Shown here: positions 2,867 through 58,658 of the stretch, in pieces | Numbering within the stretch: the first letter of the stretch is position 1 | Layout: each line of letters opens with the position of its first letter | NCBI GenBank assembly: GCA_010093995.1 | Contig: ML992513.1 | Coordinates: forward strand, 493,203-557,202 | DNA from: Elsinoe ampelina | Lineage: Eukaryota | Direction: 5' to 3' | Length of the DNA stretch: 64,000 bases | Program-made: the position numbers and the translations under genes | The notes under the pieces: generated by a model | Seen by the model: only the letters and a program-made list of their open reading frames with translations | The model's database searches: none | Told to the model about the DNA's origin: nothing

Positions 2867-4987
2867 ATGTCGTTGAGACCAGATGACCGCTCGTCCCGTC
2901 GGCGGGAAAGGTCCAGGTCACGCTCTCACGACGACAGGGATCGTTCAAGAAGCAATGTACGAGAATCGAAGCGCAAGTCGAGCCCACCAAAGGAAGACAG
3001 ATACCGAACAGAAAATATGACCGTCAAGGATGCACCCAATGGGTATCAGCAATACTCGGCAGCTCCATCGTCCATCTCCATGCCAGCAATGCCGGGCGGC
3101 TTCGACGACAATTTGGCCATGCCATATCCAAGAGACTCGATGCTTCCGGGAGGATATCCTGGTGACTCTGTGCCTTACCCATCATCTTCGATGCCTCCAG
3201 GTGGCGGAGTCCCATATCCGACGTCAAGCTTGTTCCCCGATCCTGACCAGTTCGACATTACTGGAGCAAGTGACCGTGGCAGGCTGGAAGACTCTCTAGC
3301 TTTTGGTCACAATCCATACAGCTCTGATCGCGATTTGGCCCCGAGGAATCATGATGGCTACTACCCATCCGACCTCAGGAGGCAGGACTCATCCCACGAC
3401 CGTCACACTTCACCACCAGCACAAGCACCGTCTCCCAATGCTTTCTATGGAGCATCAAATGCGACACAGTCTCCTTACCCACCAGAGCCACATCGCACGT
3501 CATCATACGATAAGACGCGCGACCGTAGTAGTACTCTTGATGCGTACTATCCATCTGCTCCATCGTCTCAACTCACGCCCTCTGGTCAGCAAGCGCAGGT
3601 GGTCAACTTTACCCCCGGTGGTGGTCGACAACGGGCATCTTCCAACCTTGCACCACACATGGATCGTCTAAGCATCGGTGGTGGCGGCATCAACTCGACT
3701 GGCGGTCTCCCACCACCCAGTCCTCTCCTCGAAGCCTACCGCGGTACCTACCAATCCATCTCCCCCATGGTCGCCCCCATGATGGCAGACTCTTCTGACT
3801 CCGACCTCTCCGACCTCGAGCTCTCTCACCCCAGCACAAAGGACATGAAACCCTCCTCCAAATCATCCAAATCCAAATCCACCTCCAAGTCCAAATCCTC
3901 CTCCTCCTCCAAAGACAAACCCCCCTCCTCGCACGCCCCCAAAAAGTCCGTAACCCTCTACACCCCCACCACTGACGCCCTCGCCATCCAAAAAGCCCTC
4001 TCCCACTCTCACACCTCCAACCTCGACCTCCCGCGCCTAACCTCGATCCTCCCCGTGCTAACCCACGACCAAATCCTCTCCCTCCGCAAAGAATACAAAC
4101 TCACCGCCAAAATCGCGGGAAAAGGCATCAACCTCCCCAAACACCTCAAGCTCAAACTCACGGGCAACTACGGCAAAGCAGCCTACGTCACCGCCCTGGG
4201 CCGCTGGGAGTCCGAGGGTTACTGGGCGAGTTTTTTCTACCAATCTGCCGCTTCGCGCAGGGAGCTGGTCATCGAGGCGTTGATGGGGCGCACGAATGCC
4301 GAGGTGAGGGCTATCAGGGAGGGGTTTAGGGATAAGCGCTACGGGGATGATTTGAGGAAGATGGTGGAGAGGGAGTTGAGAAGGGATAAGTTTGGGACGG
4401 CGGTCGGGTGGGTGCTTGAGGAGAAGAGGCAGGAGGAGACGGATGTGTGGGGGAGCGAGGCGGTGAGGAGGGATGTTGGGGTGTTGATGCAGGTGATGAG
4501 GGCGAGGGAGGGCGGGGAGAGTATTTTGCTCGAGGTGGTGGTGAGGAGGAGTGATGCGCATTTGAGAGAGGTGTTGAGGTTGTATGAGGCGAGTACCGGG
4601 GGGAATTTCGCGAGGGAGGCGTTGAGGAGGAGTGGGAATTTGGTGGTGAGTTCTCATGTTACATGGTCATGCGGGAAGGGAAGCTAATAAGTGCAGGGTG
4701 AGGTGCTGGCGCATATCTTGAATGGGGCGATTAATCGTCCGGCGAGAGATGCGTTGCTGTTGAGGCATGCGATTCAGGATATTGCGGACCATAACAAGGA
4801 TGAGGAGTTGAGATATGAATTGCTCATCTCAAGACTGGTGAGGTTTCACTGGGATAAGGCACACTTGGAGAGGATAAAGAGGGAGTACTTTTCAAAGACA
4901 GGCAGGACGCTCGAGGCAGATATCTCTGCAGCGACAAAGGGAGATTTGAGAGATTTCTTGAAGGAGCTATGTGATCCTAGGTCTTGA
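2867..4987 (+). CDS. Fungal annexin C4-like protein (long disordered N-terminus, C-terminal annexin repeats); intron 4646-4696
   Basis: DALAIQKAL..LTSILPVLTHDQILSLRKEY, RRELVIEALMGRTNAEVRAI, GEVLAHILNGAINRPARDALLLRHAI, ATKGDLRDFLKELC. The GTGAGT..CTAAT..CAG intron joins the two ORFs in frame. Confidence 0.85.
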
Positions 4988-6399
4988 TTGAATTGGGGAT
5001 CGGGCGAGTCGAATTCTAGCCGGTCAGGATGGGTGGAAGCATTGCTTTGCTGGATGTTCATGACGATCGAATAGGAATATCGGCCTAGGTAGTGACAGAC
5101 ACGTGTGATTTATTCGTCCAGGAAGAGGCCCTCGATTTCGTGGTCCAGTGCCGCGTCCTTAGTCTCATTCTGGGTTTGCGCTTGAGCCTGCGTGGACTCC
5201 CTCACAGTCTCGCTGGGAGGATCGCTCTCTCGCTCGCTGCTTTCATGTACTGCGGTGCTCTGACCCCGTGTAGCCGCCATAGAATCGACACAGCCGCTCC
5301 GCCCAAGTGAGACGTCTTTCATCGCTTGCCTGACCAAGATCTCCTGTTCCAAGTGAGAGCGTCGCTCTACTTTCATTCTGATTCTCACTTTGTACCGATT
5401 AGGCGGGGAAGTGTCCTCTACCATATACTCCTGTCGCACATACCGCTTGAAGGCGCCAAAGTCTCTCCGCAAGCTTCTCCAGAAATGGTCCTACCAGAAA
5501 ACACCAACCAGTCGAGCAAATATCGCGGCGACGTCATGCGCATGAACACCTGGGTGTGCATGTGTAGGATGCTGATGTACATGTGCATGGTGCTGGTGGT
5601 GCTGGTGGTGCTGGTGTGGATGCATGAGGTCACGCAATACCTGTAGGGCGTCGGTGACGGTTGGAGTAGTGAGGGTGGCAGCCTGGCGATGAAGAGCTTG
5701 ACGGTGCCTGAGTTGCCTATTGGGAATAGCTCGGCGACAATGAAGGCGGTGATGAAGATCAGGCTATTTGCCTACTGTATGACGTGTGCCTCTCAACGCC
5801 TTTGGACAATGCCCACCCAAATCTGTAGCACTGTTGTCCCCAGTCCGAAGCTCCAATTTCGGCGGAGAAGCAATGCCTTGACACTTGCAATGCGAGTGGA
5901 TGCCACGACAGTACCGATATTGCTATCAGCCAGAACACATAGATGGCAATGCCCAGAGTATGGTCCAGTAGCAATGAAGTCGATGCCTTGTATCTACAAT
6001 GGAAGAAGGCGATCTAGACTTGCCCTGGTCAACTGAGATACTTGCCTAAGCAGCACTTGCCTTTTGTCATCAATGCCAGCGAGATCATCACATCAACGTT
6101 CATTCAGCGTGGATCGTGCAATTGTGTCAATACAGATGAAGGAAAGAGAAGAAAGGATGTTGAAGTCCAGGGCATGCTCCATATGAACCTTGAGATCGGC
6201 AATCAATCTCCGACCAGATTTTGTCACATGTCAGAGGATCTGGGCGATCAAGGCGCGAGGTCGGAAAGGGAAATGTTGAACGTCATGCCATTTCTGAAGC
6301 TCAGCCCTCGTCGACATTTGCCTTGAGTATTCGCCTTATCTTTTTTGGTTCTGTATTGCCATTTCGCCATGCTTCCTACTCGGTAGCATCTCTGTAAAC

Positions 6400-8522: not shown

Positions 8523-8614
8523 TCTATAGACTTTGCATGTTTGCATTCATGAGATTCATAAATCATCACTCATCACCACCCTATCTTCCATCCTCATCTC
8601 CCCACGTCAAGTTC

Positions 8615-10174
8615 TCAGAGCCCACAACAGGCCCAACCCCTCCTCTTCCTCCTGCTACCCCATCCATCCCCGCCTCCCAGCACTGCAGTCCGTCCCACCA
8701 ACCTCCCCTCCCCTCCATCCTCACCCCCGACCCCACTCGCTAAACTCCCCCAACTTCCCCCTCTCCTTCCCCAGCTCCCCCAGCTCCCGCCCCTCTCCCC
8801 TCCCTTCCCTCCCCTCCCCCTCGACCCCCCACTAACCCGCCGCCACCACCTCCCTCCCCTCCCCCCTCCATCTTCCTCCTCACTCTCATCATCATCAAAC
8901 ACACTAACCTTCACCTCCTCAAACAAATCCGCCCTCAACAACGGCCTCGATATCCTCTTTTTACTCGAGATATAGCTCGCGCCCACGCTCCCCATCGGCG
9001 TCATACTAGTCGGGGACGTCAGCGGCGCCAACTCGAGAAGGGGATGCGAGGCGGAGACGGATCCCGAGGCGGGCGCGGTGTCCGTGTCCCCTGACCATCG
9101 TATGCCGTGCTTGCTGTAGGATCCGACGGAGGAGGAGAAGGAGGAGGAGGTGGTGAAGTCCCTTTTGTGCTTGGGTTTGCTTGAGGTGGCGGAGGAGAGG
9201 GATGGGCGGATGGTTGCTGTGGAGGTTGTTGAGGGGGTGATTGGTGGGGAGACGAGGGTGGTGCTGCGGATGCGGGCGGCGTGGGGACGGCGGGGGAGGG
9301 AGGAGGTGGGTGCGAGCGGGGGTGGGGAGAGGATCATGGCTGAGGGGGCGTAGAGGATGGAGGATGAGGAGGAGGTGGAGCGGGTGTGAGTTGTGGAGGA
9401 CGAGAGGCGGAAGGGGAGGGTAAGGCCGGGGATGGGTTGAGGCGGGGTGGTGATGGTCGGGAAGAGGGAGTAGGTTGGTGTTGGCGCGGGAGGGGGCGGG
9501 AGGGGGGATGTCGGTAGGGAGGGTAGGTTGGAGGTTGGATGGGATGGGCGGGGTGGTGAGGACTCGAAGGAGAGGTGGGCTGGTGGAGGTGATTCTTGGT
9601 CGAGAAGGGCGATGGCGGGTTCGTCTTCGTCGAGAGCAAAGTTGAACCCGGCGATGGCGTTGCCGGGAAAGTCTGATGGATTGACTGTGGCTGTGGCCGT
9701 CAAGCCTGTCCCGGTACCAGCTAGGGGGAGACCTGGCTTGATCTCGTGCTCCGCAACGCTGGGCTTCTGATTCGACATTATTTCCCGATTGTGTAGATGC
9801 TGACTGTCGTCGATATCCTGCCATGTTTCATTGAACTCGCCAAAATCAAACGCGGCAGGGCGTTGTGGGACTTGCTCAGTGGGTATTGTGGCGGCACTAG
9901 CATTGCTGGTCCCCGAATACAGGTAGTAATTGATGATATCCGACTTGAGTGTGCTGCATCTGGTTTCCACAGAGGGCTGACGCAAGAGACTCGTACTGTA
10001 TACACTTGACGATCCATCGTTGCTGACAAGGCGAACGCTACCTTTTCGAAGTGGACCAGGTGCTTGCCGCAATGGCTGAAGTGGAGCTGGCCGAGGCTTC
10101 CTGCTACTTCCTGGTATTCGCAAAGTCTCGGTGCGAGGCTCGTGCTTGGTTGGCGTCATCTTGATACTGCTCAT
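8615..10174 (-). CDS. Hypothetical Pro/Ser-rich low-complexity protein
   Basis: Uninterrupted ORF of over 500 codons; likely start MSSIKMTP at 10174. No recognisable domain. Confidence 0.6.
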   Translation of the reverse strand: MSSIKMTPTKHEPRTETLRIPGSSRKPRPAPLQPLRQAPGPLRKGSVRLVSNDGSSSVYSTSLLRQPSVETRCSTLKSDIINYYLYSGTSNASAATIPTEQVPQRPAAFDFGEFNETWQDIDDSQHLHNREIMSNQKPSVAEHEIKPGLPLAGTGTGLTATATVNPSDFPGNAIAGFNFALDEDEPAIALLDQESPPPAHLSFESSPPRPSHPTSNLPSLPTSPLPPPPAPTPTYSLFPTITTPPQPIPGLTLPFRLSSSTTHTRSTSSSSSILYAPSAMILSPPPLAPTSSLPRRPHAARIRSTTLVSPPITPSTTSTATIRPSLSSATSSKPKHKRDFTTSSSFSSSVGSYSKHGIRWSGDTDTAPASGSVSASHPLLELAPLTSPTSMTPMGSVGASYISSKKRISRPLLRADLFEEVKVSVFDDDESEEEDGGGRGGRWWRRVSGGSRGRGGKGGERGGSWGSWGRRGGSWGSLASGVGGEDGGEGRLVGRTAVLGGGDGWGSRRKRRGWACCGL

Positions 10175-10934
10175 GTTGACCAATGCTGGCTCAATCTCCC
10201 GACCCCGGTAATAGGAAAAGAAGATTGCTCGCACGGATGGTGGCGGACATGCTTTCAAATTGTATGACCGTCCGTCCCAGCCGTATGGAGCAAGGAATGA
10301 GGATGTCAGGGACTGTCAACATCCCCGGACTTCTGTCAAAGGACAACCGAATAGCTGGCAATTGGGATCGAGGAATCGAGAAGCACGGGTGAAGCAAGGG
10401 ATTGCGAACAGGGCAAAAAGGAATGCAGAACGCGGACGCGGACTTGAGAATCGGATCAGCTGCAACCACTTACGCAGCACCCACTTCTTGTCCCCTTTTG
10501 GATTTTCAGAACAGCTCCCCGCGCCCTTGCCATACTTCCAAGGCCTTGCCTGGTAACGTGTTGGCCGAATTCAAGGAGTAGGAAAGTTCTGTCGCCTCTA
10601 GGGTGCTCGGTTGCAAGCCACATGTTCGACTGCGCATTTGTACGTTGCGCGATAAACCGTACTTAGAGGGACCGCCATCAAAATTGCACAAGGAAGCAAA
10701 TGTCGATGCTGCGAAGGTGAAGTGAAGTGGTGGAGGCAGATGGAAAGACGCGCCTTCGGGAGTCTCCGACTTCAGCCAATCATAAGTGAGCATTTGACAG
10801 CATGCCGGACCCACTCGGCATTCGGCGTTGCGAGTCGAGAAGCTACCATTTCTACTTCTCATTCGTTCTACTCTTCAATCTTCACAGCAAACACTCGATA
10901 GACTCACATCTCACGACCTAACATCTCCATCAAC

Positions 10935-11439: not shown

Positions 11440-13633
11440 AAGATGGGTCAAGGAAGAGATATGATTGTAGGGATCAGAGCTTGATTCGGCATGGATGTAT
11501 ACACCTAGCTCGCATAGGCGATGGCGCACAAAACTCGACTCTCAATAGATTGTGTTCCTACCTGCCATACATGTGTCCAGAGCCCATCATTAGAACCTTC
11601 ATTCGATCTCAGAGGATGTGCCAGGCAACCTCACGCCGAGGTCCAAGGATATTTGTCTGAAGGATGTGCATGCTTCCACGCCAAACTGCAAGGTATCGGC
11701 TTCGTGATGGCAAAGATGACTTCTCCCGCGTCATGATTGAACCTGTAGTCATTATAGGTGCGCACTAGGTAAGAAGCTGTATCTTGGTTCCTGTCGACTT
11801 CGAGAAGGGCACTAGTCAGTCCATGTGCTGGTAGGATCGCGCACCAATCATTCGTGGAAGTACACTGAACAAGAGCCAAGGCACGGCTGGTGATGAAGGG
11901 CTGCACTTGACATATTGAGAAATGGAATTGGCAGCCGGCTAAGGGCCGTGGCATAAAGTGGACGGAGGCCGTCACCGAGCAATCTACACGCCGCTATCAA
12001 GGCCTTGGTCGTCATGAAATGTATAGCAAAAGCAGCATATGTGACTTGATCATGTTTCTACGAATTTCCCTGCTATACATGCTTGCAATTCGCCTTGCCA
12101 TGGTCAGGAGAAGGAGCAAGGCGCTGGTCTCAGCCAGTTCCTGCTGATCTGAATGCCTCGTCACATCCTTAGGTGGTCGCGACGACCACAGTTTGCTGAG
12201 GAAGGTCCTGTTGGCCGTGGTTGCAGTCGATACCGGAATCTACTATATTAGCAAATGCATCTTTCCAACAAGCCATCCGTCCTTCTCATCACTCATCTCA
12301 TAGTCCAACCCATCATGCGTCTTCGTACTATCTTCAACCACTCTTTACCTCTGCCGAAGCCAGCATCCTGTTGCATCGCGCTGTGCATTCAATCCACCGC
12401 CTTCTTACGCTATCGTTGTCGATCGACGCTCTCCCCGAGTAAGCTTCCCATTGCAGTCTATCAGCACCCACCACTGACATAATCTCAGTCCTTGCTACCT
12501 TCCATCGACTCTTACGAGGCGACTTGCAGCATGTATGATCATCACCGATCATGTCATAACAGGTGGGTCGTCGATGATGATAAAATCCATCCACACTGAA
12601 AAAAAAACACTCTGATCCGGTACTTGGAAATGATGAGGCCATGGTTTTCTGATTCGACACTCACTCAGTCCTCGGGCTGACCCCATACGGGCTTTTATAG
12701 GTCTTCCCTCCGCGATGCCAGTTGTCGTCTCTCCGCTTCCGATCACTCGAAAACTTTCATTCGCGACATCCACGATGCTTTTCGGTTCTGGATTTGTATG
12801 CAGGAGCACTTGGAGATGTTGTGCATACTCGTGGATGATTTGGTTGGTCGGAGGCATTGTGGACAGCCTGGCGGTCGGATCTGACTTCATAGCTGAATGC
12901 AAGGTGCTTTTGAACTTACTCAAATCTGCTGTGCCGTGCTTGGACTTGCTTTGTTGATCGAGCTTGTGCACAACGCTCCTTCTGTTCATGAACTCACTCT
13001 TGGAGGATGTGTGATGACAATGCGTCTTCGAGCTGTCTTGACTAACCTGGGAATAGCTTTCGCCCGGATGAATATTGGACGGTGTGTGCCAATGCTGCAC
13101 GCTGAACGAGGATCGCAATGCCAGACAAAATGCTTCCAGACATCAAGCATCCACAGATGAATGTGAACTCGAAGCATGTGGCCATCTCCAACAGGTCAGT
13201 AAAATGTGAGAGCTTCTTTAATTACGTTTGGGTCGGGAATGGTAGCCGCATCCCGGCCGGTGATGATGGAATACGCATTGTCACGGACGACGACTGCTGC
13301 TCGAGCATTTCGGGACGACGATATGATGCTCGTGATAGAAGAGATTGCAATATTGCCAGTGAGAGAAATGGCGAAAGTTGCGGACCAAGCGATGCTGGAG
13401 ATTTTTACCAGTACATACGTGGCCTACCTTTACGCAGTTGTTGTGTCCCTCGCCTCTGTTGATGCTCGTACCAGCGTGGTTTTACTTCGCGTCGACATTG
13501 CGTTGGTGACTCAGTGAATGACCTCTTCTGCGGCGGTTCATGAAGTTGGTCGCCCATCAAACACGCTTAGTCAGCAGCTTCGACTTCATGCAAGCTTTGC
13601 CCTCGAGCCGCCTCTACACAGCATTCCACAACG

Positions 13634-14105: not shown

Positions 14106-14222
14106 AACAAGCACGAGTCGGGATGGGATGCATTTGTACAATACAAGGACACAATTCAAAGACGTAACGACCATGTATTCCTCTTCTGGGGTATCATATC
14201 TCCCGCTCACTTCCGAGGCCAA

Positions 14223-15086
14223 CTACCTCCCCTTCTGCATCATGGCCGCTCTAGCAGGATGCATCCCCTCCGCCGCATCCACCACCTCCACCTCCCCACC
14301 GCCCCCCTCCTGCTTCCCTCTCCCCTTCCCATCCCCTGGCCCCTTCCCCTTCCTCTCCTTCCTCGCCTCCTGCTTCGCCAACGCCTCCGCTCTCCTCTTC
14401 CTCTGCTCCTCCAACCTCACATTCTTCTCCTCCAACTTCTGCTTCCTCCCCTCCCCCTTGCCCCCTCCGCCCGCCGTCAACTCCACATTGATCCTCCGCT
14501 TCTTCTCCCCCGCCTTGCCGCTGTCGAACATGGAATGGTGGTAGAGTTTCAGACAGGTCTTCATGCGGTCGAAGGACGCGAATTCGAGGAAGGCAAAGCC
14601 TTTGCTTTTCCCGGTTTTGGGGTCGGTGCGGTGTCGGATGGACGAGGGGGTGATGGATTTGAAGTGCGTTTCGAGGGCGGCGGTGGTGGTGCTGTAGGGG
14701 AGGTTGCCGATGAAGACTATGAAGCGTTGTTTGCTTGGGGGTGCAGCTTCGGGATCGGGAGCAGTGGTTGGGTCGGTGGTGTCGTTTGCTGGTGGGGTGG
14801 GGTCGGTCTTTCGCTTCTTGGAGGGCTTGGGTGGTTGTGCGGGCTCTTGTGTCTCGTCGGAGGTTGACTTTCGTTTCGAACTCTTCTTTTTCTTGGGTGG
14901 TGCGGTTGCCTTGTCTGCGTCGTCTACTATGACTGGTGCGTAGGCCTCGTCGGCGGCGGTCTGGGGGGTGTCGGCATTCTCTTCCGCCGCATCGTCGTCT
15001 CGCTTGCGTTTCTTGCTCTTTTTGAATCGTTCCTCTGATCTTTTGGCCTTTTTAGCTTTGCTGCTCAAGATCTCCGCTTCCGACAT
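14223..15086 (-). CDS. NOP6: Nucleolar RRM protein, Nop6-like
   Basis: Lys-rich N-terminus; RRM RFIVFIGNLPY..KSKGFAFLEF..RRINVELTAGGGG; C-terminal MHPARAAM. Confidence 0.85.
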   Translation of the reverse strand: MSEAEILSSKAKKAKRSEERFKKSKKRKRDDDAAEENADTPQTAADEAYAPVIVDDADKATAPPKKKKSSKRKSTSDETQEPAQPPKPSKKRKTDPTPPANDTTDPTTAPDPEAAPPSKQRFIVFIGNLPYSTTTAALETHFKSITPSSIRHRTDPKTGKSKGFAFLEFASFDRMKTCLKLYHHSMFDSGKAGEKKRRINVELTAGGGGKGEGRKQKLEEKNVRLEEQRKRRAEALAKQEARKERKGKGPGDGKGRGKQEGGGGEVEVVDAAEGMHPARAAMMQKGR

Positions 15087-15272
15087 GGCGAATTGTGTCA
15101 GTCGTCTTTTCGATAAGTTTATGAAAGTCGAGATCCGCATCCGTCTCTGAAATCTGCTCCGCCCAAAATTTCTGCATGACTCGCCGAATTTCACATGACG
15201 AGTGAGGTGAACATTTGCGTTCATTCTCCTCTCATCTACCATCTTCTCATTCTAACAAACGGAAACGACACC

Positions 15273-16022
15273 ATGGCTGCTGACACAGATTCGAGCCATA
15301 TCTCAACGCTGCTCAACAATCTGTCTTCGCACGTCGATACGACGTCCCAAGCCCTACAGCCCCTCCTCTCGAAACCTCTCAGCAGCACAGCTAGCAAACT
15401 TCCACTCCTCGACAAAGCCAAGCTCTACATTCACGTCGCCTATGCGATTGAGTCATTACTCTTCTCTCAGTTTCAGCTCAGTGGGGTGGAAGCCAAGTCA
15501 CATCCGATCTTCGCGGAGCTCAAGCGAGTGCGGAGCTATTTCGAGAAGATCAAGCATGCGGAGGGGCAAGGCGGGCCGAGTATGAAGCTGGACAAGGGTG
15601 CGGCAGGGAGAATGATCAAGGCGGGACTTGCTGGGAATGACCGGAAAGACCGAGAGGATGCACAAGACCAGCAAGGTATTAAGAGGAAGGCGCAGGAACA
15701 GGAATTGGTGGAACGGTACTCAAAAGGGAACAGATTTGGCGCTGCAGGGAAGAGGATGAAAGAAGACGAGGCAGAAGGACGAGAGGAGATGATTGAGGGG
15801 GAGGGTGGGGAGAGAGATGAGACGACGAGACAAGCAAGCAGCAAGAAGAGCAGAGCAGAGAAGAGCGGCACGAAGGAGAACAGGTCTGCCAGCGACAAGC
15901 ATAGCCGAAGGACGAAGCATTCGCATGCTCCGAATGATGCGCATGGGGCATTCCAGAAGCTGCTCGGAAAGTCGAAGGACTCGACTGGTGAAAGCGGGAA
16001 GAAGAAGAAGCACAAGGGCTAG
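15273..16022 (+). CDS. Exosome-associated Sas10/Utp3/C1D family protein (Rrp47/Lrp1-like)
   Basis: LPLLDKAKLYIHVAYAIESLLFS..HPIFAELKRVRSYFEKIK, LDKGAAGRMIKAGL, and a Lys-rich tail. Confidence 0.88.
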   Translation: MAADTDSSHISTLLNNLSSHVDTTSQALQPLLSKPLSSTASKLPLLDKAKLYIHVAYAIESLLFSQFQLSGVEAKSHPIFAELKRVRSYFEKIKHAEGQGGPSMKLDKGAAGRMIKAGLAGNDRKDREDAQDQQGIKRKAQEQELVERYSKGNRFGAAGKRMKEDEAEGREEMIEGEGGERDETTRQASSKKSRAEKSGTKENRSASDKHSRRTKHSHAPNDAHGAFQKLLGKSKDSTGESGKKKKHKG

Positions 16023-17759: not shown

Positions 17760-18330
17760 GCACATTCAGATGCGGCACATTACCTCTTGTATGACTTTCT
17801 CTCAACATCAGACACAGAAGATACCCACTTCCACGTCCCAATCTCTAATAAGACGCATCATACCACATAACCGACCAGCCAAACTTTCTCACATTGGCCC
17901 CCTTCCCATCGCAGGCACACTTGCGCCACAAATTCAAAGCCCGCCTCACGCTCGGGCCAGCTTTTTCCTTCGTACTTGATCAATATATATGGTGCATAGC
18001 GGCGTTGCTATTCCTTCCTTCTCGCACTTTCGACCCAGCCCGCGCATTCTCATTCAGAGCACTTCTACTACTACTGCGCGATTACAGGCCTGGGGCTGTG
18101 AAGCTTTCACTGGCGAGGGCAATCATTGACAACTCTCCGACCGCAATGTAGTGGGCTATGGCGAGGACCACCGGCGAAGCGCAACGAGAGATATGCTTGT
18201 AGATAGAGTGAATCGATTACGGTATATTTTCACACGTGTACCCGACAAGAGCGTGAGATGTTGCTGTGCAATCTAACGCGAAGACATGCAACAGGCAGAA
18301 CATGTCGCTGCATGAACGCTGATACGACGC

Positions 18331-18368
18331 TCGACACAATACTGTATGGTCGACACAATACTGCATGG
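18331..18368. repeat. Tandem duplication of a 19-bp unit (TCGACACAATACTGYATGG x2)
   Basis: Direct reading; one mismatch between the copies. Confidence 0.8.
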
Positions 18369-44800: not shown

Positions 44801-45043
44801 GAGGAGGAAAGTGAAGAGTCTGCCTTTGAGGTTTCAGAGGAAGACCTCGCTAGCGAGGAATCATCGGAAGATGATAGTGAATTTGACGAGGAAGCCAGTG
44901 CCGAGGCCAGTGAGGAAGACATGTCTGGCGAGGAAGAGGAAGGGGAGGACTGGGATGAGCTTGAGAAGAAAGCAAAGAGGAAGGACAAGGAGAGTGGGTT
45001 AGATGACGAGGATGATGGGAGGAAGAAGAAGGGGAAGCGCTAG
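41874..45043 (+). CDS. SPT16: FACT complex subunit Spt16; introns 42054-42113, 43900-43949
   Basis: [58 protein letters not shown], acidic tail ending EGEDWDELE. Confidence 0.97.
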
Positions 45044-45673
45044 GAGGATTCCAGGCGCGCTCAGAAAGGCAGACCAAAGCAGAAGTCGAGAAAGGACAGC
45101 TCATCGGATGACGAGGAAGACGCTGTTGCCGTTGACATCGATATAGAGGATGAGTACGGAGACAGTTTCGGCGGCGATAGTGGTCGCCAGACAGAGCGTC
45201 CGAGGAAATAGGGACGTAAGGAAGCTGCTCTGTACAATAAAGGGGCCAAGTTGACATGAGCATGGATAGCGATATCAGTAGGCAAGTCAGGAGAGCTTAA
45301 CTACCACAGATGGAGTCAGCGCTATTGATCGTATTGAGTAGTCAAGTCGAATCCATATCAAAAGTCGCAACAACTTCCTGCTCAGTACACCTCTGCATGC
45401 AGGTCAAACGTGGTGAAGCAATTTCAGGCCAACTCCCACTTTGGAACCGACTCTGACAAGAACTTCTGTTGACGTTCAACTACGATAATCGAGCAATAAG
45501 CGAAACTCAACAAGTATCTCCCAGAAATGAATATCCCGTTCTCCACCCTTCCACTCCTCCCTTTCCAGCAGATCTACTCCTTCCTCTGCCCAAGAATACT
45601 CGCCAAATCCCACGTCCTAGTCGGTCTCCTGCTCACAATCAGTACAGCCCCCCTTCAATACCTTCAGACGCAC

Positions 45674-46774
45674 TCACGGATTCACCACCTCGGGATTCGG
45701 CTCATACTCCCCGTTTCCCCCCTCCTCATCCCCCTCACCCACCTCCGGCGCAGGCGTCACCCCTCCCACCGAACCCCTCACCGTCGTCGTCCCCGCCCAA
45801 ACCGTACTCGTCAACGCCACGGTCGTCGTCCTGGTCGACAACGCCGGCAACACCGTATACGTGACCTCACCCGTGACCGTGACGGTCGGGGTCCTCGTCT
45901 CCACCACCCTGCTCTCGCTCTCGACGCTGTACGCCAACTCGACCGTCTCCACCAGACTGACGGTCGTGAGACGCGCCGACACATTGGCGGTCACGGTCTC
46001 GAAGATGAGCTGGCTTGGTCCGGCCATTGTGGTGGTGAAGTTTATGCTGGTCGTGGTGGTGGCGATGGACGTGAGGGTCGTGGGCCGCCAGATTTGGTAC
46101 TCTAGGATGCAGAGGTAGGTGCCGTTGGATTGGTAGGAGCAGATTCGCAGGTCGACGTCGGTGGGGGCCGAGGCGGTGGTGAGGGCTTGCCAGGAGGCGA
46201 TGAAGTAGGTTGTGAGGGTGCGGATGGTGCTGAGGGGGGGAGCGGGGGTGGGGACGGGGGAGATGGTTGGCGTGGAGGTGACCAGGATGTACCCGAATTG
46301 GGTGCTGAAGGTGACGTTTTGCGCGCAGGAGGTGATGGTGTGCTTGTCTACTAGGCCGGTGAGGGTGGTGGCGCAGACTTCGGTCACGGTTGGGGAGAAG
46401 ATGGTGTGGCATCTTTCGGGGCCGGTTTGGTAGCTTGCGGTGTAGTTGAGGTAGGGGCGGGTTGAGGGCCAGGGGGTGGGCGTGGGTTGAGGGATGGCGG
46501 CGACTGGGGGGAGGGCGCAAACGGTGTATTGGGGGACGTAGGAGGTGACGAGTTGGCCTTGTTGTGTGACTGGTACTGGTGTGGCTCCTGGTGATGGCGT
46601 GATATAGGTGTAGACCAGTGGTGCTGGAGGTGTTGTTGCCGCTGCCGCCATGACTGGCATTGCTTGTCCAGTCGCTTGTCTCTTCACGATGTCGACAGCG
46701 TTGTGCTCGAACGCAGGGACCGCTGCCGCCGCGTGGACAAACGCCAACAGCAAGTATCCACCCTTTGCCACCAT
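45674..46774 (-). CDS. Secreted Thr/Pro-rich hypothetical protein with six Cys
   Basis: Signal peptide MVAKGGYLLLAFVHAAAA, Kex2-type VKR, continuous ORF, Thr-rich body. Confidence 0.75.
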   Translation of the reverse strand: MVAKGGYLLLAFVHAAAAVPAFEHNAVDIVKRQATGQAMPVMAAAATTPPAPLVYTYITPSPGATPVPVTQQGQLVTSYVPQYTVCALPPVAAIPQPTPTPWPSTRPYLNYTASYQTGPERCHTIFSPTVTEVCATTLTGLVDKHTITSCAQNVTFSTQFGYILVTSTPTISPVPTPAPPLSTIRTLTTYFIASWQALTTASAPTDVDLRICSYQSNGTYLCILEYQIWRPTTLTSIATTTTSINFTTTMAGPSQLIFETVTANVSARLTTVSLVETVELAYSVESESRVVETRTPTVTVTGEVTYTVLPALSTRTTTVALTSTVWAGTTTVRGSVGGVTPAPEVGEGDEEGGNGEYEPNPEVVNP

Positions 46775-47448
46775 CTTTGCGTCGTCGAGATAACAGATAC
46801 TAAACCTTCGTAATGTCCGAGATAGACGATACACACAGCTCGACAAGGATCATGGAGAATGCGGGGATCCTCATGGCATTTTGCTCTAATGTGCAGCATA
46901 TTGATGTGGCTCTTCTAGCATTCCTTGCTTAAATCTCGAACAACAAACAAGGGCAGGAAGTTATGGAATGGAATGAGGCCGGCCCCCTCTGCTCACCTTG
47001 ATCACACGAGTCTATTGATATCACTAGAGACTGGAGATGAGATTGCAGAAGACTAGAATGAAATCTCTTGCGTTGTATCGTGAAATGACAGTGCCCAGAC
47101 ACCGCAAAGTCGTGAGGATTGGCAGATGAAGGACAGCGGCCCTCAAAAAGTGGCGTCACGATCAATAGATCACGAGATACTTGATACATGAGATCCGAAT
47201 TTTTCAGGAAATAGGATGATGGAGAGCTGGATTGTTCAGATGTGACATGCGGCGCGAGAGGAAGGAAGAAGAGACAAAGAAAAGAGAAAGAGAGTGTGCC
47301 TCGTCGTGCACATTTCCGACCTCGCCAAGCCATCTCACTAACAGTGCATATTCAGCCATGGAACCGGAATTTGTAGTTTGCGGTGGTACACACGCTCAAG
47401 TATGGAGTAGAGTCGTCAATCATCTACAATACAGCTTATTGTACAAAA

Positions 47449-50295: not shown

Positions 50296-50958
50296 AGGGC
50301 CAGAAGATCGTGTCGGATGATGATAGGCTTGTGACGGGATCTTGGGCAGCGGCCGAACGTTAGCAGCTTGGTTGTCGACGACGACGATTATCTTTGAGCT
50401 TGTCTTCGAGATTGAAGCTCCAGACCTGGTCGACCTCTGAGACGTTCAGAAATTACGATTGACCCACAAATTAGAGAGCGGCTCTGCGGGCGAAGCCGGT
50501 GCAGTGGGTCGGCACAGATCCGGGGGAAAGGGATGCGAAATGACAACACCGTTGGGTCTATTGCTTCTCATCTCCCCCTCTTACTTGGATAATTTCCAGT
50601 GGACTGATACAGTCTGATCGATACGATTCCTGGCTCGAGCCGATCTTTGCGATTATCAGCAAGCCAATCAATCCGTCTAATGCCCGGTGCATGGTCTGGG
50701 CTTGCCTCGCCTCCTTGTCATCCGTCTTTAAACAATCAACCCATACAGAAGAAGCTCCAAGGACGTTGTACTGTATGTGCAGTATAGCAACGCCTCCCCT
50801 TCATACCAGCTATTTGCTGCGTGTAGTGAGGAGTTCGTCTGTCTGTGTGCAAACGTTCTCCAACCGTAAGTGCGATCATGAATCTATATAGCATTCTTTG
50901 CAGCCGCTCGCGGGATTGTTCAGGCAAGTCAGCATCTCCTACTCTACAGTCCTTCCTC

Positions 50959-52089
50959 ATGGCTCTCAACATTGTCGCACTCGGTCTTGCAGCTGCCGGC
51001 CTTGTCCAAGCTGTACCAGCACTAGAAGTCTTTCCCAAGAACGCCGCCGCGGCCGCCGTCTGCTCAGCAGCGCCATACAAGCAATGGCTCCCTCTCTCGC
51101 AACTCCCAGCAGCCGTGACCTTCTGCAACAAGAAGTTCCCGCTCGCCAAATGCACCACCACCAAGAACACAACCTCCACCTCCTTCGCCCCCGCCGTCAC
51201 AGTCACCGACACCATCACCCTCAACCAAGCCGTCGAATTCACCCGCACCATCGCCGCCGCAACCACCAACATCACCACCACCCTCCCCTCCCCACCCGTC
51301 ATCAAAACCAGCACAGTCACCACCGTCGAAACCCAAGTAATCTGCTACAACCAAACCGCCAACCCAGGCTTCGGCGCCCCCTCCTCAACCACCACCTCCA
51401 CCCTCGCAACCACCACCACCACCCCCCTCCCCCAACAAAAACGCTCCCCCTCCGACTTCTCCGACGACGCCAACCTCACCCCGCTCCTCGCGCGGGCCCT
51501 GGCGCCAAAAGCGAAAAAATCCCTCTCCTCCCGCCTCGCCTCCGTCCGGGCTCTCGCAACAGGTAATAAACCCAAGGCCAAATCCACCGCCAAAACCATC
51601 TGCGGCTGCATCCGCCCCAACCCGTCCTGCTCCACCAAAACAGCGACGGTGATCGCCACGGCGGCCAACACGACGTACGCGACCGTCACGGCCACGGTGG
51701 GCGTCACGGCCACGAAGAACGTGACGGAGAGCGGGACCGTGACGGTCACTAGCACCGTGTTTACGGGGACCGCGGCGACGATTAATAGTTTTGTGAATGT
51801 GACGAGTACGGTTTATGAGAGTGGGTGTTCGGGGGTTGGGTCGGTGACGACGACGGGGACGACGACGGGGACGGGTAGCGCCAGTTCGACTACCACGGGG
51901 GAAGTGAGCAGCAGCAGCAGCAGCAGCAGCTTGTCGTCGCTGAGCACTAGCTTGGTCAGCACTAGCTTGGTGAGCAGTGAAACCAGCGCAGTGACGAGTG
52001 CCATCACGACAACGACCACGACCGAGGTGAGCTCGTCGACGAGCAGTGAGGTGGCTACTACGACCACGGCTACGACATCTGCTTCGTAG
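50959..52089 (+). CDS. Secreted Ser/Thr-rich (mucin-like) cell-surface protein with Cys motifs
   Basis: Signal peptide MALNIVALGLAAAGLVQA; C..AVTFC and TICGCI motifs; QKR site; Ser/Thr-rich tail with no hydrophobic GPI signal. Confidence 0.8.
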   Translation: MALNIVALGLAAAGLVQAVPALEVFPKNAAAAAVCSAAPYKQWLPLSQLPAAVTFCNKKFPLAKCTTTKNTTSTSFAPAVTVTDTITLNQAVEFTRTIAAATTNITTTLPSPPVIKTSTVTTVETQVICYNQTANPGFGAPSSTTTSTLATTTTTPLPQQKRSPSDFSDDANLTPLLARALAPKAKKSLSSRLASVRALATGNKPKAKSTAKTICGCIRPNPSCSTKTATVIATAANTTYATVTATVGVTATKNVTESGTVTVTSTVFTGTAATINSFVNVTSTVYESGCSGVGSVTTTGTTTGTGSASSTTTGEVSSSSSSSSLSSLSTSLVSTSLVSSETSAVTSAITTTTTTEVSSSTSSEVATTTTATTSAS

Positions 52090-53036
52090 AAGGTGAGCGC
52101 AGGCTGGAGAGGGGATGGGAGCGCAGGATACTCAAGATCAGTGGTGTTGGATTCATGGGAAAGCGATGGAGTCACAAAGACATAACAGTAATGTTCGGTA
52201 TTAATGAGGAGAGTATGTAGGCAGGGAACAATACCGTCCACGGACAGAAAAGCATAATGCATAATGCCACAACCAGAAAGACTCTGTTCTTAACCCCGTG
52301 TGCTCCTTGTGTTGCTCGAACTGTCGAATCCGGCCTACAGCTATCGCACGTGATCTCGATGGAACTTGGTTGGCTTGCACACATTGATTGTTGAAACTAT
52401 CTAGTCGCGAATCGATCCAGCCAGCTCCCACGCCGGACTTGTCTCTCAACAAACCCGACACGTCACCGACCTTGTCCATCGCGTATGCCCTCCGTCCCCT
52501 CCCCATAGAGCAATGTCGTCCTCCCCACGAGTGTCCCTTCCAATCTGAACCACGAGACCCCCGACGACAAAAGTTGCATGATAATTAGTGTGGAGTGGCG
52601 CTCGAAAAGAAACCGAAAGAAGCCGAGCTGTGTTGAGCAATCTGTTTCCCAGTCCTTGTTCTCATTTGGTCTGGTAGCAGCGCGTCGTGTGTATTCTGCA
52701 GGTCAATCGATACCAGAGGTCCAACAGCCTGCCGAATGACACGCCAAGTGACACGTCGAAATACCAGTGAGAAAGTAAGGAGAAGAGATGCGGTTACATC
52801 AATGCCGGGTTGAAAGCCGTGTTTCATCGGTCGACAAGTCCTGGAGACTTGCCTTCTAGTGAAGAGCACGACACGTGCAATGATGACCAAGTGTGCAAGG
52901 AAATCGAAATCGACTGGTCAGACCAATCAATGCCGCCTTTCCCAGCAAATAGTAGTGATGACGCTCAATCCTCGCCCAGTTTGTGACTGTCGTCCAATTG
53001 TGGTGTCGAAGATCAGCCGACCTTGTTGTCGTTCAA

Positions 53037-54407: not shown

Positions 54408-55969
54408 GATTTGATTTGTGTTTGCAAAGGCCAAGCCCTTGCTCTTTCAATCCGTAATCGGAGAAGGTGTGTTGTGGTTGAAGGAAGAGAGAGGATCTGG
54501 TGAGGTGTCAAAGTCAGTTTGGGTGTCAATCTGAAGCGGTGAGCTTGGCGGAAGCGAGTGTCGACAGTTGAAGGTCTGATTGAGTGCTTGTGAAACGAAA
54601 AGCTCGTGACTGTGATTGCAAAAACTCGTGCAGGGCGGGTCGTATTGATTGTCGACAATGGTGGTGTGCTGTCATGTGAATAGAGGTCGATTGTGAGGGA
54701 CGTACCTGGTGATACAGCCAAGTGATGGCAGATGACGGACAGATGGACGGTTCCGACCGTGTGGTGGTAAATGCAGTCTTTGCCGGGAGACGAGGTCGTC
54801 AACGGCGTGTGATCGAAACCAGACGAGCAGTGTCCTTTACAGGAGCACCTTGCTGCGTCTTTTTGAAGCCTGTCGGCGATGGGAGGACAAGGTTGTGTGG
54901 TGGAGAAGAGCGGTACGGTGAGATGTCGAGATCAAAGGTTGACAAAGGAGGAGAGGAGACGGACGTTTGGCTGAATGTGGAAGGCGGGCCTTGGCCGCTG
55001 CTGGGTGCCGTCGTTTCTGGTTCTCGTCCTCGTTCGGCCGGCAGGGCGCGAGTTGATCTTCGGGCAGCAAAAAGGCAACCCTTGGATCCAACCTTTTGCT
55101 CGGACCTTGGAAAAACCCACGGCCCATGCTGCGAGCAGGAATTTCTGTTTCAGCTTTCGTCGATCTCGAATGCAACCTGAACATCACAAAACACACGTCT
55201 CCACTTGTTGTCTTTTGTCCGATGCATTGGTCCGTCCCTGATCGCTGTGGTATTATCTGCAAGCCCAGCAATCCATCTAGGGTCACAGCCGATCTACCAG
55301 CTCTGTGGGATCATAATACTCACTGCATACGAATACAAGCAAATATCCCTCGGTACTGCCGTATCAAAGGACGACTTTTGGAAAGCTGTTACGAGTCCGT
55401 TGTCAACGTCTGTCAGGGTTTCGCACATGGCCGGCACCGCTCGCCTAGCAGCTGACATCAGACTGAAAACGTCTTCAACATGCTTTGCATCCACCTGCTC
55501 ACTATCCTGCCGATTCCACGTATCAAGATACGTCTTTACTGCCCTATCAAACATGCTCTTACGTTGGAGAAAGTAGGATTTGCCGAGACGCCCACGTCGC
55601 CCGCAACGCCGTAATCGATCATCGATACGTCAAAGGCTCAGGGCCGCGGTCCAATCCACCTCATGCAGTCGTTGATTGTGTTCTCTCGGCGGGTGGGATA
55701 TCGCCAACTCTAGCGTCTCGCATGCTATGAAGAAACACTATTGATATGTAAACAGTCTTGTGATTATGAAGCAGGTCCAGGCGTCTCTCAGACTGCTTCC
55801 GTTCGGGAATGACCCCGCCGATCACTTCTTGGCTGCGGCTTCTGGTTCCTTGAACATGGTCGTCTCCAAAATCTCGTCCCTGACAAGTCCCTGCACTACG
55901 TGATCCGACATTAAAACTAGGGCTCGGCAAGCACTGTGGAATTTTGCTTCAACAGCCAGAAGATTGGCT

Positions 55970-57353
55970 ATGCCATCTCGAGCCACGAAAAGGCAGAAGC
56001 TCGAGTCGGATCCAGCCATCGATCCCAAGCATGCAGCCTTCACAGAGTGGGCCAAGCAGCGAGACATCGAGATTGATGGAGTCGAGCCAGCTGCTCTGCC
56101 GGGGCGAGGCATAGGATTGATGACCACGAAGAAGATCAAAAAAGATGACCAGATCATTCATGTACCCGCTGAGGCCATGATCAAGCCACAGAACGACCTC
56201 TACAAAACAACAGATGAGAAGACTGCTTCGATATCGCCACAAGCCCGATTGGCGGCGACACTCATGCACATGGATTCGATCAAGAACGCCGAATATGAGA
56301 TATGCTCTTCAGTATGGCCAACATCAGACGACTTTGAGTCTTCACTGTTCTGGTACAGCCTCACAGCACACACCGCCTCCCCGCCCTGGTATGACAGTAT
56401 GCCAACAGCTCTGCGGACCGCATCTACCCGTCTCATGCATGACTTCCGGCGTGACTTGCTCTCTATACAAGATCTCGAACATGACGACTTTAAGAACGCA
56501 ACTGCCCAGTCATTTGTCTATTTCTGGACCATCGCCAACACTCGAAGTTTCGCTTGGAAGCCCCACGGACGTAGAGAAGGTGTCATGGTAATGTGTCCGT
56601 TTCTTGACTACATGAATCACTGTCCGTCTGGAGAAGGAGTAAGTCTTTGATCTTCTGCCGCATTCGAAGATCATGACTGAACCTTTTCAGTGTGGCGTAA
56701 GTATGAGTGAAGATGGCTATACCCTGACGGCCAATCGTGATTATGGTAGGTCCTGTGCTGTATTCTTTCTATTCTGCATCTAATGTCATGTCAGAAATTG
56801 GAGAAGAGATCCTTGCCACCTATGGCGCTCATTCAAATGACAAGTTGCTTGTCCACTGTGCGTAAATCCCCGATGGGCAATCAGAGTTTTGCCACTAATG
56901 CTTCCAGATGGCTTCACCATGCCCGGAAGCGCCGACGACTCGATCCAGCTCGACAGCATCATCCTTCCGAATCTCGACGACGCTCAGAAGAGCGACTTGG
57001 AAAACGTCGGCTACCTCGGCAACTATAGCCTCTTCCCAAGCACACAAGAAATCTGTTTCCGAACCCAGGTCGCTCTCCGATCGAAGTCCATGACCTCGAA
57101 CGAGTGGGAGTACTTTATGAACTCCGGCGACGACATTGGCGTCGACATGGACGAGGAGATCAAGTCCGACCTCGCCACGTTCATTGAGAGCACAGCCTAC
57201 CGTCGACAACTCGACATCTCCTCTCTGAAACTCACCGCAGACCACGCCTCCAAGCCCACCTTCCGCGCTGCCATAGAACAAGTCATCCAGCGTGCCATCC
57301 AAATCAACTCTTCCCTGGCCTCATTCCAAGCCTCTCATAGCTCAAGGCAATAA
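55970..57353 (+). CDS. SET-domain protein lysine methyltransferase (Rkm2/SETD4-like); introns ~56639-56690, 56746-56794, 56858-56908
   Basis: FTEWA..GRGIGL, WTIANTRSF, MCPFLDYMNH, GEEILATYGAHSNDKLLVH|YGF, CFRTQVALR. Confidence 0.88.
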
Positions 57354-58658
57354 AATGTCATACCCCTCCATTCTGATCCTCCCCCCTTCACCACCAATCG
57401 CATACTTCCTCCTCACCACCTCAAAAACAATCAACCCCGCCGCCGTACTCGGCACCTGCCTAATCGTACCCCACCAAAAATCCTTGAACAACCACCTCCT
57501 CCAGCCCCCCTCCCTCCTCGCCAACACAGCACAAACCCTCCCCGTCTTCCTGTACGCCTCGACATACCTATCCCTCGTCTCCCCCCACCCCCACCCCCTC
57601 CCCTCCCCCTTGGCCACAGTAAACTGCCTATCCAACCCCTCATACCTACCCCAATGCACACTCTGCACCACACTCAAAGGCCACACCACGACCGACTGCA
57701 CCACACTCGCCCCCGCCCCAGCGAGCAACAAAAACGCCGGCTCCATGAGATAATGCGGCCTGACGACGCCTCTCCGGCCCTCCTTGGCCTCCGCCACCAT
57801 CTCCCCCCTCTGCCGCCCCGAAAGGTTCTCCAGCCCGTAATACGCCCTCACGAAAGCGTAAAAACCCTGCGACTTGACCGCCTCGAACGTGCAGAAGAAC
57901 AACCCCGCGCCGAGGGAGTCCTTCGCCAGACTCAGCGTCGAGCCGGCGTAGGCCCCTCGGGCGCCGATGCGGTGGAGGGTTTGGCGGGCGTAGCTCCACA
58001 TGGACGGGTAGCGTTTGTCGAGGAGGTCGGAGGTTTTGAAGCGCACGACGAGGGCGTCGAAGGGGGCGGCGAAGAGGGTTTGGATTGTGCCGGCTGTGGC
58101 GCCGGCGAGGAAGGTGGCGGGGGCCGGGGGTGGGGGGTAGACTCGTTTTTGGGCGGGGAGGGATGGGGGGTAGTAGGTTGCGAGAGAGGTGAGGTAGGTG
58201 GTGTAGAGGACGGTGGAGATGGAGATGTTGGCGAGGAGAGGCGGGAGGACGTGCAGTGGGAGGAAGGAGAGGCCTTGGGTTTGCACGGCGCGGTAGAGGA
58301 TGAAGGGGGTGGTTTGGGTGGGGGACCAGCGGGGGGAGGTGGTGGGTGGGGAGGGGTTGGCGAGGAGGGTGATGGCTTTGGGGTAGGCGAGGTAGCTAGG
58401 ACGGGGTCAGAAGGTTGGGCGGTGATGCAGGGATGGGTGTCCTTACTCGACTCTGGTTTTGAAAAAGGATCGGACGGGGGCGCGGAAGTAGAAGGCCGCC
58501 ATGCGGGCGGTAAGGGCTCTTACGCCAGCCGCCGAGGCACCGGTGGCAGCATTGTTTTTTTGTTCGCCTTTGGCGGTCTCGACCGCATCTCTGATGTTAC
58601 CGGAACTGTCGCCGGATGGGTTTGGGATCTTGCCGTGTGGAAGGATGCTCACACTCAT
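57342..58658 (-). CDS. Mitochondrial carrier family-like membrane protein; intron 58396-58446
   Basis: FYFRAPVRSFFKTRVD|Y, FLAGATAGTIQTLFAAPFDAL, KDSLGAGLFFCTFEAVK, RQVPSTAAGLIVFE. Confidence 0.85.

Follow-up and report, generated by a model that had tools for sequence, protein, structure and literature searches.

The 64,000-nucleotide stretch of the Elsinoë ampelina genome analyzed here (GenBank assembly GCA_010093995.1, contig ML992513.1, positions 493,203 to 557,202 of the forward strand), hereafter the window, contains eight blocks of 0.65–1.3 kb in which the + strand is C-rich and G-poor and then, within about 100 bp, turns G-rich and C-poor, with GC going up from about 0.52 to 0.62–0.67. 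These blocks are composition domains anchored to genes, lying in roughly the last 0.65–1.3 kb of a transcription unit. An earlier note on this DNA had described recurring C-to-G skew switches and had attributed them to a fixed bidirectional process independent of gene strand; the switches themselves are confirmed, with eight steps above our cut-off and one weak site near 30300, and the attribution is revised below. All statistics were drawn from this one 64-kb window together with 80 orthologous loci.

Over the whole window the two bases are balanced (17,067 G and 17,194 C). Measured in 400-nucleotide (nt) windows, the skew passes from -0.59 to +0.59 at ~4200, from -0.74 to +0.77 at ~9000 and from -0.60/-0.55 to +0.65/+0.69 at ~31350, with comparable values at the remaining sites, and the GC content of the blocks reaches 0.58–0.67, compared with ~0.50–0.55 in the rest of the window. 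We used a step statistic, defined as the skew of the 300 nt to the right minus that of the 300 nt to the left, with a cut-off of 0.5. This yielded eight upward steps (at 4196, 9006, 14525, 31354, 36715, 45982, 51644 and 57958) and two downward steps (at 8566 and 14194), both of which are outer edges of blocks; no isolated G-to-C switch with a step of at least 0.5, and hence none as sharp as the C-to-G switches, was found in the 64-kb window. The site near 30300, already described as weaker, has a step of 0.35, and the G arm at 51690 is weak too. C arms contain 0.43–0.55 C and 0.08–0.14 G, while G arms contain 0.45–0.54 G and 0.10–0.15 C. Single arms span 0.3–0.85 kb, block centers are spaced 4.8–16.8 kb apart, and the mean profile of the eight blocks is nearly symmetric, peaking at -0.65 and +0.62 at 200–300 nt from the center and returning to zero by about ±600–700 nt. 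The G-rich arm reported at the start of the window was also recovered, at 1–200. The blocks and their host genes are as follows, with arms given as they read on the + strand (ORF, open reading frame).

Block 1, 3706–5040: C arm 3706–4196, G arm strong over 4197–4709 and weaker to ~5040; annexin gene (+).
Annexin gene (+): ORF from 2840, intron 4646–4696, last exon 4697–4987, with Annexin Pfam matches in both exons.
Block 2, 8563–9619: C arm 8563–8996, G arm 8997–9619; unnamed gene (-), ORF 8615–10315, Met near 10174.
Block 3, 14194–14843: C arm 14194–14515, G arm 14516–14843; RRM protein gene by Pfam match (-, ORF 14223–15251).
Block 4, 30979–32201: C arm 30979–31354, G arm 31355–32201; FSH1 serine hydrolase gene (+, ATG 31169, stop 32212).
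Block 5, 36105–37374: C arm 36105–36774, G arm 36775–37374; last exon (36146–37279) of a + gene.
Block 6, 45534–46638: C arm 45534–45954, G arm 45955–46638; gene of a conserved Dothideomycete protein (-, 45674–46774), here orf45674.
Block 7, the weakest, 51087–52200: C arm 51087–51641, weak G arm 51642 to ~51880–52200; Thr-rich ORF (+, 50830–52089).
Block 8, 57190–58439: C arm 57190–57968, G arm 57969–58439; mitochondrial carrier gene (-).
Mitochondrial carrier gene (-): exon 2 57342–58395, intron 58396–58445, exon 1 up to ~58657.
G arm cut by the window start, 1–200: no Pfam match for its gene.
Weak version, 29636–30610: GH5 cellulase gene (+, stop 30484).

The blocks are no assembly artefact, because across parts of blocks 4 and 5 the window agrees with RNA-derived contigs of three studies: the contig pieces at 30603–31102 and 31729–32175 show zero differences from the window, and a spliced contig bridges 36098/36146. 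The RNA contigs, from four runs with GT..AG joints, were used for cover and bridging rather than depth, and uncovered stretches (e.g., most of 46009–47342) were not taken as evidence. The runs listed as organism B were nearly identical to the window and yielded no substitutions between species.

The skew is present at silent and non-coding sites, too. Inside single ORFs, third codon positions change from about 40 C and 2 G to about 3 C and 36–43 G per 50 codons, against about 15 C and 15 G in unskewed genes. The strongest skew lies at fourfold-degenerate sites. Summed over the eight genes, these sites comprise C 569, A 99, G 56 and T 28 in the sense-C arm (skew -0.82, GC 0.83) and G 368, T 84, C 64 and A 36 in the sense-G arm (skew +0.70, GC 0.78), compared with C 550, T 404, A 370 and G 312 in six unskewed genes. 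The carrier intron (C 23, G 7), the upstream region and 5' untranslated region (UTR) of FSH1 (C 115, G 19), and the 3' UTRs of the carrier (G 54, C 17), of orf45674 (G 75, C 23) and of the block 5 gene (G 42, C 13) are likewise skewed. Because fourfold sites, introns and UTRs all carry the bias, its operation on DNA or RNA, and not via protein composition, is supported, and the earlier claim that synonymous codons change along with protein makeup is borne out, with no loss of skew at synonymous or intronic positions. The amino-acid makeup does shift across the blocks, as also claimed, from Pro/Ser/Thr/Leu-rich to Gly/Arg/Glu/Val/Trp-rich, and C-ending codons predominate in casein kinase I and GH5, as selection on protein composition or codon usage alone would have it. 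Such an explanation is nevertheless contradicted by the fourfold, intron and UTR counts, and by a frequency of G-ending fourfold codons of 67% in the 3' arm versus 19% in unskewed genes; we regard it as extremely improbable.

Each of the eight blocks lies within one gene, four in + genes and four in - genes as had been pointed out, and in all eight the sense order is C arm and then G arm; the orientation of block genes lacking a Pfam match is backed by homologues or splice joints. The earlier note argued that transcription direction cannot explain the pattern and counted its independence of gene strand as evidence. This argument does not hold, because a C-then-G sense strand is, in composition, its own reverse complement, so that a gene-polar pattern on either strand automatically reads C then G on the + strand. 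Arm edges were placed by a cumulative-sum rule at thresholds of 0.15 and 0.19. At 0.15, the outer edge of the sense-G arm falls at +52, +52, +29, -11, +95, +140, -211 and +152 nt relative to the stop codon, i.e., about -10 to +150 nt from it in six to seven of the eight blocks, whereas random placement gives a chance of ~0.15–0.27 per block of an edge that near a stop. At the same threshold, G-arm length is correlated with the distance from center to stop (r = 0.88, exact permutation p = 0.0036), and the length of the sense-C arm is correlated neither with that of the G arm nor with the distance to the stop.

A weaker tendency of the same sign extends beyond the blocks. The eight block genes have a sense skew of +0.21 to +0.82 over their last 300 nt, and the same measure is positive at 25 of the 27 gene ends of the window, approximated by terminal ORFs. 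At the fourfold sites of 15 unskewed genes, the skew over the final 80 codons is -0.12, versus -0.32 in the remainder (Fisher p = 0.003, in this single window), with 12 of the 15 shifting towards G. Since unskewed genes also drift towards G at the 3' end, the blocks look like the extreme of a slight 3' trend shared by genes in general.

This anchoring to genes, with a G-arm edge that tracks the stop, does not support the fixed bidirectional process that had been proposed, for which replication origins or termini were one candidate. If the block centers were origins or termini, with the arms recording replication strand asymmetry, the polarity would be as expected: all eight switches are upward jumps, with the outward 5'-to-3' strand G-rich, and bacterial origins and human skew jumps have this polarity too. 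This explanation would, however, require eight such sites in 64 kb at the observed spacing, every one of them inside a gene, with arms so short that the skew is lost within 600–700 nt and that end at the gene end rather than spanning a replicon. Moreover, a skew of ±0.6–0.8 is, to our knowledge, far above any known replication skew, and we give this explanation almost no weight.

A convergent neighbor is present for seven of the eight block genes, with stop-to-stop distances of -11 to 1126 nt, an enrichment that is suggestive only. The partners are genes for an amine oxidase, ribosomal S14/S29, a Vps62-like protein, RPN5, SPT16 and casein kinase I, and the + ORF pair ending at 57353; the neighbor of the annexin gene is uncertain, and one further convergent pair (orf59667 and a PD-(D/E)XK gene) has no block. 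The sense-G arm of block 2 adjoins the stop (8522) of the amine-oxidase gene (+; Amino_oxidase Pfam match), and the RRM protein gene of block 3, labelled NOP6 in the earlier note, converges with the ribosomal gene (+, stop 14053). FSH1 faces the Vps62-like gene (-, stop 32412), where RNA contigs with - strand introns cover 32241–33612. The block 5 gene, whose upstream exons are joined via introns 34731–34819 and 36098–36146 (GT..AG joints in RNA contigs), faces RPN5 (-, stop 37498; RPN5 Pfam match), and orf45674, with homologues found down to 41–49% identity, faces SPT16 (+, stop 45043). Next to block 7, the first recognizable gene is casein kinase I (-, stop 53215), the ORFs between scoring as non-coding, and the carrier gene overlaps by ~11 nt with the stop of the + ORF pair (55904–56647, 56841–57353).

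Some host genes call for further description. The long annexin ORF ends within the intron at 4646–4696, and the last exon carries a second annexin repeat to the stop at 4987; with the stop so corrected, the skew over 4687–4987 is +0.35. Homologues of the block 2 gene show 46–56% identity and span ORF residues 2–456 and 2–484. The protein nearest to its product P0302 (8618–10174, -) in the database is 99% identical and 386 residues long and matches residues 1–375 only, so that the existing gene model seems to stop at the block center while remoter homologues reach residues 456–484; public records may thus mis-annotate its 3' end. The C arm of block 4 takes in the upstream region, the 5' UTR and the first 185 nt of the FSH1 coding sequence. 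In the GH5 gene, the coding sequence is rich in C at third positions, the skew changes sign near 30254, and 30459–30610 is G-rich. The F-box label given to one gene in the earlier note has no Pfam support in the window.

RNA contigs extend RPN5 transcripts to 37116 and SPT16 transcripts to 45628, both entering the outer part of the neighboring block. A - strand spliced transcript running leftwards from at least 31102 passes part of the FSH1 C arm, as seen for this block only. This transcript (30001–31102, intron 30537–30603 with CT..AC joints) is antisense to the 3' part of GH5 and starts at or beyond 31102, within the FSH1 upstream region; no convincing ORF was found in 30001–31102, the frame at 29570–30451 (-) scoring as non-coding. 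In the + neighbor of the carrier gene, the last 80 codons have fourfold counts of C 23 and G 3, i.e., the composition of the block and not the usual 3' shift.

The distribution of the trait among relatives was approached at the protein and DNA levels. The best protein matches of the window genes are from Elsinoë. For the carrier, identities are 95% (E. batatas), 80% (E. fawcettii), 71% (E. australis) and 64% (Sphaceloma murrayae), and for FSH1 a partial E. ampelina protein shows full identity over the length that aligns. Each residue was scored by the G minus C that its codons must carry at positions 1 and 2. The resulting arm-to-arm difference in implied skew for the carrier is 0.79 in the window and 0.52–0.76 in four Elsinoë/Sphaceloma proteins, whereas 11 further Dothideomycetes, Myriangium among them, range from -0.01 to 0.21. 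For the carrier, the pattern is thus a derived trait of the Elsinoë/Sphaceloma lineage. The G arm of FSH1 contains Gly/Asp/Glu-rich insertions in Elsinoë only.

At the DNA level, we compared 80 orthologous carrier loci from metagenomes, with identities of 41–53%. The difference in third-position skew between the arms is +1.51 in the window and -0.44 to +0.88 in these loci, so that none of the 80 carries a carrier block of window strength, while nine show a milder version: five at +0.84 to +0.88, of which three are near-identical and may be one organism, and four at +0.49 to +0.59, with the remaining 71 at -0.44 to +0.31. In L046, L064, L007 and L059, neighboring genes also have C-then-G or strongly skewed stretches; GC is raised in L046 and L064, where C-then-G blocks occur in genes beside the carrier orthologue, and in L046, L064, L007 and L049 the G arm likewise stops at the end of the carrier match. 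The trait is thus present, though milder, in some other fungi and extreme in Elsinoë. Some of the fungal contigs that carry L046, L064 and L059 exceed 100 kb. A high GC content at third codon positions (GC3) was rejected as a sufficient cause, as the six loci examined with a GC3 of 0.74–0.85 (L019, L065, L063, L067, L003 and L056) differ between arms by only -0.30 to +0.11.

We propose, with confidence somewhat short of even, that the blocks arise from transcription-coupled, strand-asymmetric mutation of an exposed strand, perhaps reinforced by R-loops where convergent transcription overlaps. At fourfold sites the two arms are mirror images, with G 67, T 15, C 12 and A 6.5% in the 3' arm versus C 76, A 13, G 7 and T 4% in the 5' arm, and because they mirror each other they point to one process acting on opposite strands. 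Compared with unskewed genes, losses on the G-rich strand run in the order A > C > T and the only gain is in G, with GC rising; this order of loss is the one expected from depurination and cytosine deamination with C inserted opposite abasic sites. In yeast, Rev1/Pol zeta mainly inserts C opposite such sites, and when RNase H is lost or R-loops accumulate, T>G changes increase specifically on the non-transcribed strand, which is left unpaired (Owiti et al. 2018, PMC6063437). The proposal also draws on the anchoring of the blocks to genes, on the slight 3' shift of unskewed genes, which agrees with McLean and Tirosh (2011, PMC3315797), on the convergent neighbors, with RPN5 and SPT16 contigs entering the blocks, on the 3' R-loops of closely spaced human genes with terminal skew (PMC3787257), and on the lineage pattern of the carrier.

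Under the proposed mechanism, a GC-raising substitution process coupled to transcription would act on the G-rich strand, which would be left single-stranded in each arm. In the 3' arm this would be the sense strand, which sense transcription does not use as its template. In the 5' arm it would be the template strand of the gene, which becomes the non-template strand when transcription runs antisense or reads through; such transcription could originate from the convergent neighbor. Depurination would strip purines from the exposed strand, deamination and subsequent removal of uracil would strip C, and insertion of C opposite the lesion would convert A, C and T to G. Because G-rich RNA makes stable R-loops, the process could reinforce itself and yield sharp, all-or-none domains. 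The geometry fits sense transcription near the 3' end combined with antisense transcription through the 5' arm, and it also fits an origin at the center; it does not fit single-stranded tails at a double-strand break. A stronger form, which we think rather unlikely, is a self-reinforcing R-loop mutational switch, in which a gene end is transcribed from both sides and the G-richer strand forms hybrids, is kept single-stranded and gains more G until two sharp mirror domains form; between convergent genes, such a switch may have come to act as an inherent terminator for both directions. The resemblance to the yeast system has bounds, since the passages of Owiti et al. on transcription-associated mutagenesis (PMC6063437) describe the same elements (lesions on the non-transcribed strand, C insertion producing G, asymmetry heightened by R-loops) in reporter genes of repair mutants and not in natural gene composition, and they leave the C arm unexplained unless antisense transcription is assumed.

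Several observations weigh against transcription-coupled mutation as the cause, or against the gene anchoring on which it draws. The mechanism was derived from composition. The mean profile is symmetric around the center, with arms of ~550 nt each, a shape that would agree as well with a process spreading outwards from one point. The stop anchoring depends on the threshold for annexin (+52 or -278 nt) and is poor for block 7: at 0.19, the annexin arm ends 278 nt before the true stop, the weak block 7 collapses, and the correlation drops to r = 0.63 (p = 0.04). The excess of convergent neighbors is modest (7/8 vs 0.5, binomial p ~0.035, a hand estimate on a partial gene map). Over the blocks, the RPN5 and SPT16 transcripts have a non-template strand of their own that is C-rich, not G-rich, and therefore transcription level alone does not set the sign. 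In seven orthologous loci with the same convergent neighbor directly downstream, third-position skew differs between the arms by only -0.02 to +0.23; gene arrangement is not enough by itself to make a block, and a convergent neighbor was rejected as a sufficient cause. The lineage signal is also uneven, as the implied shift in FSH1 is smaller (0.31–0.37 vs 0.14–0.29 over shared columns), giving a weak signal, and that in orf45674 is weak and irregular, with E. fawcettii lacking it in the 3' arm.

The composition might instead have been selected for function, either as a two-way terminator or insulator between convergent genes or as a fold-back of the C arm onto the G arm in messenger RNA. A G-poor, unstructured RNA followed by a G-rich one prone to R-loops and G-quadruplexes (G4) would serve as a terminator in either direction of travel. 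The convergent neighbors of seven of the eight blocks would be in place for it, 29 of the 30 canonical G4 motifs of the window lie in blocks (the last one in the arm at 1–200), and predicted folding energies reach -226 to -335 kcal/mol per 660 nt. A human precedent exists in genes with terminal GC skew, which are closely spaced and form 3' R-loops, and for which Ginno et al. (2013, PMC3787257) propose a link between skew, R-loops and termination; there too, positive 3' skew is co-oriented with the gene, a close neighbor is present and only a subset of genes is affected. In that work, however, tandem neighbors are commoner than convergent ones, and its passages on terminal skew describe no adjoining C-rich arm, while the present comparison is one of composition only. 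Structure, moreover, hardly exceeds what composition gives: runs of three or more G number 429 against 502 expected, G4 motifs 29 against 31 expected, and native folds are only slightly more stable than arm-shuffled ones (z -0.1 to -3.0, 15 shuffles each). Inverted matches between the arms are of low complexity, 70–88% complementary and without consistent register, a finding on which a true inverted repeat or palindromic element was also rejected. Conserved proteins have been driven to odd compositions, such as the extra Trp, Gly and Arg of the carrier, and the seven loci noted above keep the convergent arrangement without a block. Composition, not a particular structure, is the primary feature; the selected G4 or fold-back structure suggested earlier gains no support beyond it, and we consider selected function improbable.

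Recombination offers another account, which had also been put forward and which is still a live rival, although we give it a low probability. The centers would be stable intragenic meiotic break hotspots, at which biased conversion or error-prone re-synthesis leaves a GC-raising, strand-asymmetric footprint. The sharp switch, the nearly symmetric ~550-nt arms and the raised GC agree with this, so that the general feature of such a footprint, raised GC with mirror asymmetry around a point, is present in the blocks; the position of the carrier block is conserved across Elsinoë and Sphaceloma. In Zymoseptoria, also a Dothideomycete, exons hold 1435 of the 2578 inferred hotspots (PMC5844332), and human hotspots show strong strand-asymmetric mutation in 2-kb flanks, with point-centered, mirror-image mutation types over ~1–2 kb that Hinch et al. 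(2023, PMC7615360) attribute to single-stranded DNA and translesion synthesis. If errors favored G, re-synthesis of the resected strands (+ on the right, - on the left) would have the right geometry. On the other side, the outer edge of one arm tracks the stop codon, which a break-centered process does not predict, and the blocks are tied to gene ends, unlike the human hotspots. Human tails lose C and A, and on the forward strand left of the break this implies a G-then-C polarity, opposite to that seen here (PMC7615360; the comparison data are human only). In Zymoseptoria, GC-biased conversion is reported as weak or absent (PMC5844332), and no motif beyond GC-rich words was found in common among the eight block centers. 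Deamination of C on resected break tails was rejected for its wrong polarity.

Two further candidates for the origin of the blocks were set aside. Gene conversion of 3' ends by complementary DNA, which would leave blocks free of introns, was dropped, given that the annexin intron at 4646–4696 lies within the G arm and the C arm is left unexplained. Insertion of a mobile element was rejected, the carrier and FSH1 being colinear with their homologues through both arms.

The closest known system is the skew of yeast genes described by McLean and Tirosh (2011, PMC3315797), in which the sense strand favors C at the 5' end and G at the 3' end, with its cause reported as unknown; in C. albicans, 33% of genes are individually significant for it. 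The sense polarity is that of all eight blocks, and the yeast skew likewise reaches promoters and UTRs, fourfold sites and amino-acid usage and affects mainly G/C rather than A/T. It is a weak average gradient over the whole gene, in contrast to the abrupt switch of ~±0.7 seen here with GC raised by ~0.1. In this filamentous Dothideomycete, the skew occupies only about the final 1 kb, and that in a minority of genes, and unskewed neighbors shift faintly. The blocks are thus an extreme, on/off version of the weak yeast 5'-C/3'-G skew. A literature search, with most subscription journals outside it, found no work linking Elsinoë with GC skew, codon usage or GC3, and on GC skew in fungi more widely it returned McLean and Tirosh (2011) only.

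Other features of the window deserve mention. Two weak C-then-G patterns, of about ±0.2–0.3, occur at ~12200–13400 and ~17600–19000; the latter lies directly downstream of a Ras-family GTPase gene (+, exons 17126–17395 and 17410–17661) and is probably located in the 3' part of the - gene that includes the ORF at 19079–20143. The stretches 15600–16000 and 44850–45090 are purine-rich (A+G) and code for acidic or Lys-rich tails of the Sas10/C1D and SPT16 proteins; their upward skew steps of 0.40–0.46 combine G with A, and they are distinct from the blocks. Every block holds long open frames antisense to or out of frame with the real gene, e.g., 31037–32212 (-), 57354–58742 (+), 9006–9827 (-) and 45500–46105 (+), among others. 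Because G-poor strands have few stop codons, these spurious frames are likely by-products of composition, and they could mislead gene callers. Within FSH1, RNA contigs of three runs match only a 40-nt G-rich stretch (31780–31819) with both flanks unrelated, and another transcribed locus may share that stretch. At 47953, in the Rsm22 gene, contigs of two runs (X4 and X7) lack 18 nt of the window sequence; this in-frame deletion is probably a polymorphism between strains and affects the repeated SAISETSAI stretch.

The cause of the fungal 5'-C/3'-G skew has been open since its description in 2011, and in yeasts the skew is a faint average. In Elsinoë it is nearly all-or-none, with fourfold sites passing from 76% C to 67% G inside one gene, and skewed and unskewed genes stand side by side, with related species that have or lack the trait; the cause is therefore directly testable here. 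The blocks indicate that a non-adaptive, DNA-level pressure can alter protein sequence, as in the Trp/Gly/Arg-rich half of the carrier and the Gly/Asp/Glu-rich insertions of FSH1, and they can mislead gene prediction, codon-usage analysis, selection tests and phylogeny in these plant pathogens. If the R-loop switch were true, it would have rewritten the silent sites and, visibly, the amino-acid sequences of conserved Elsinoë proteins.

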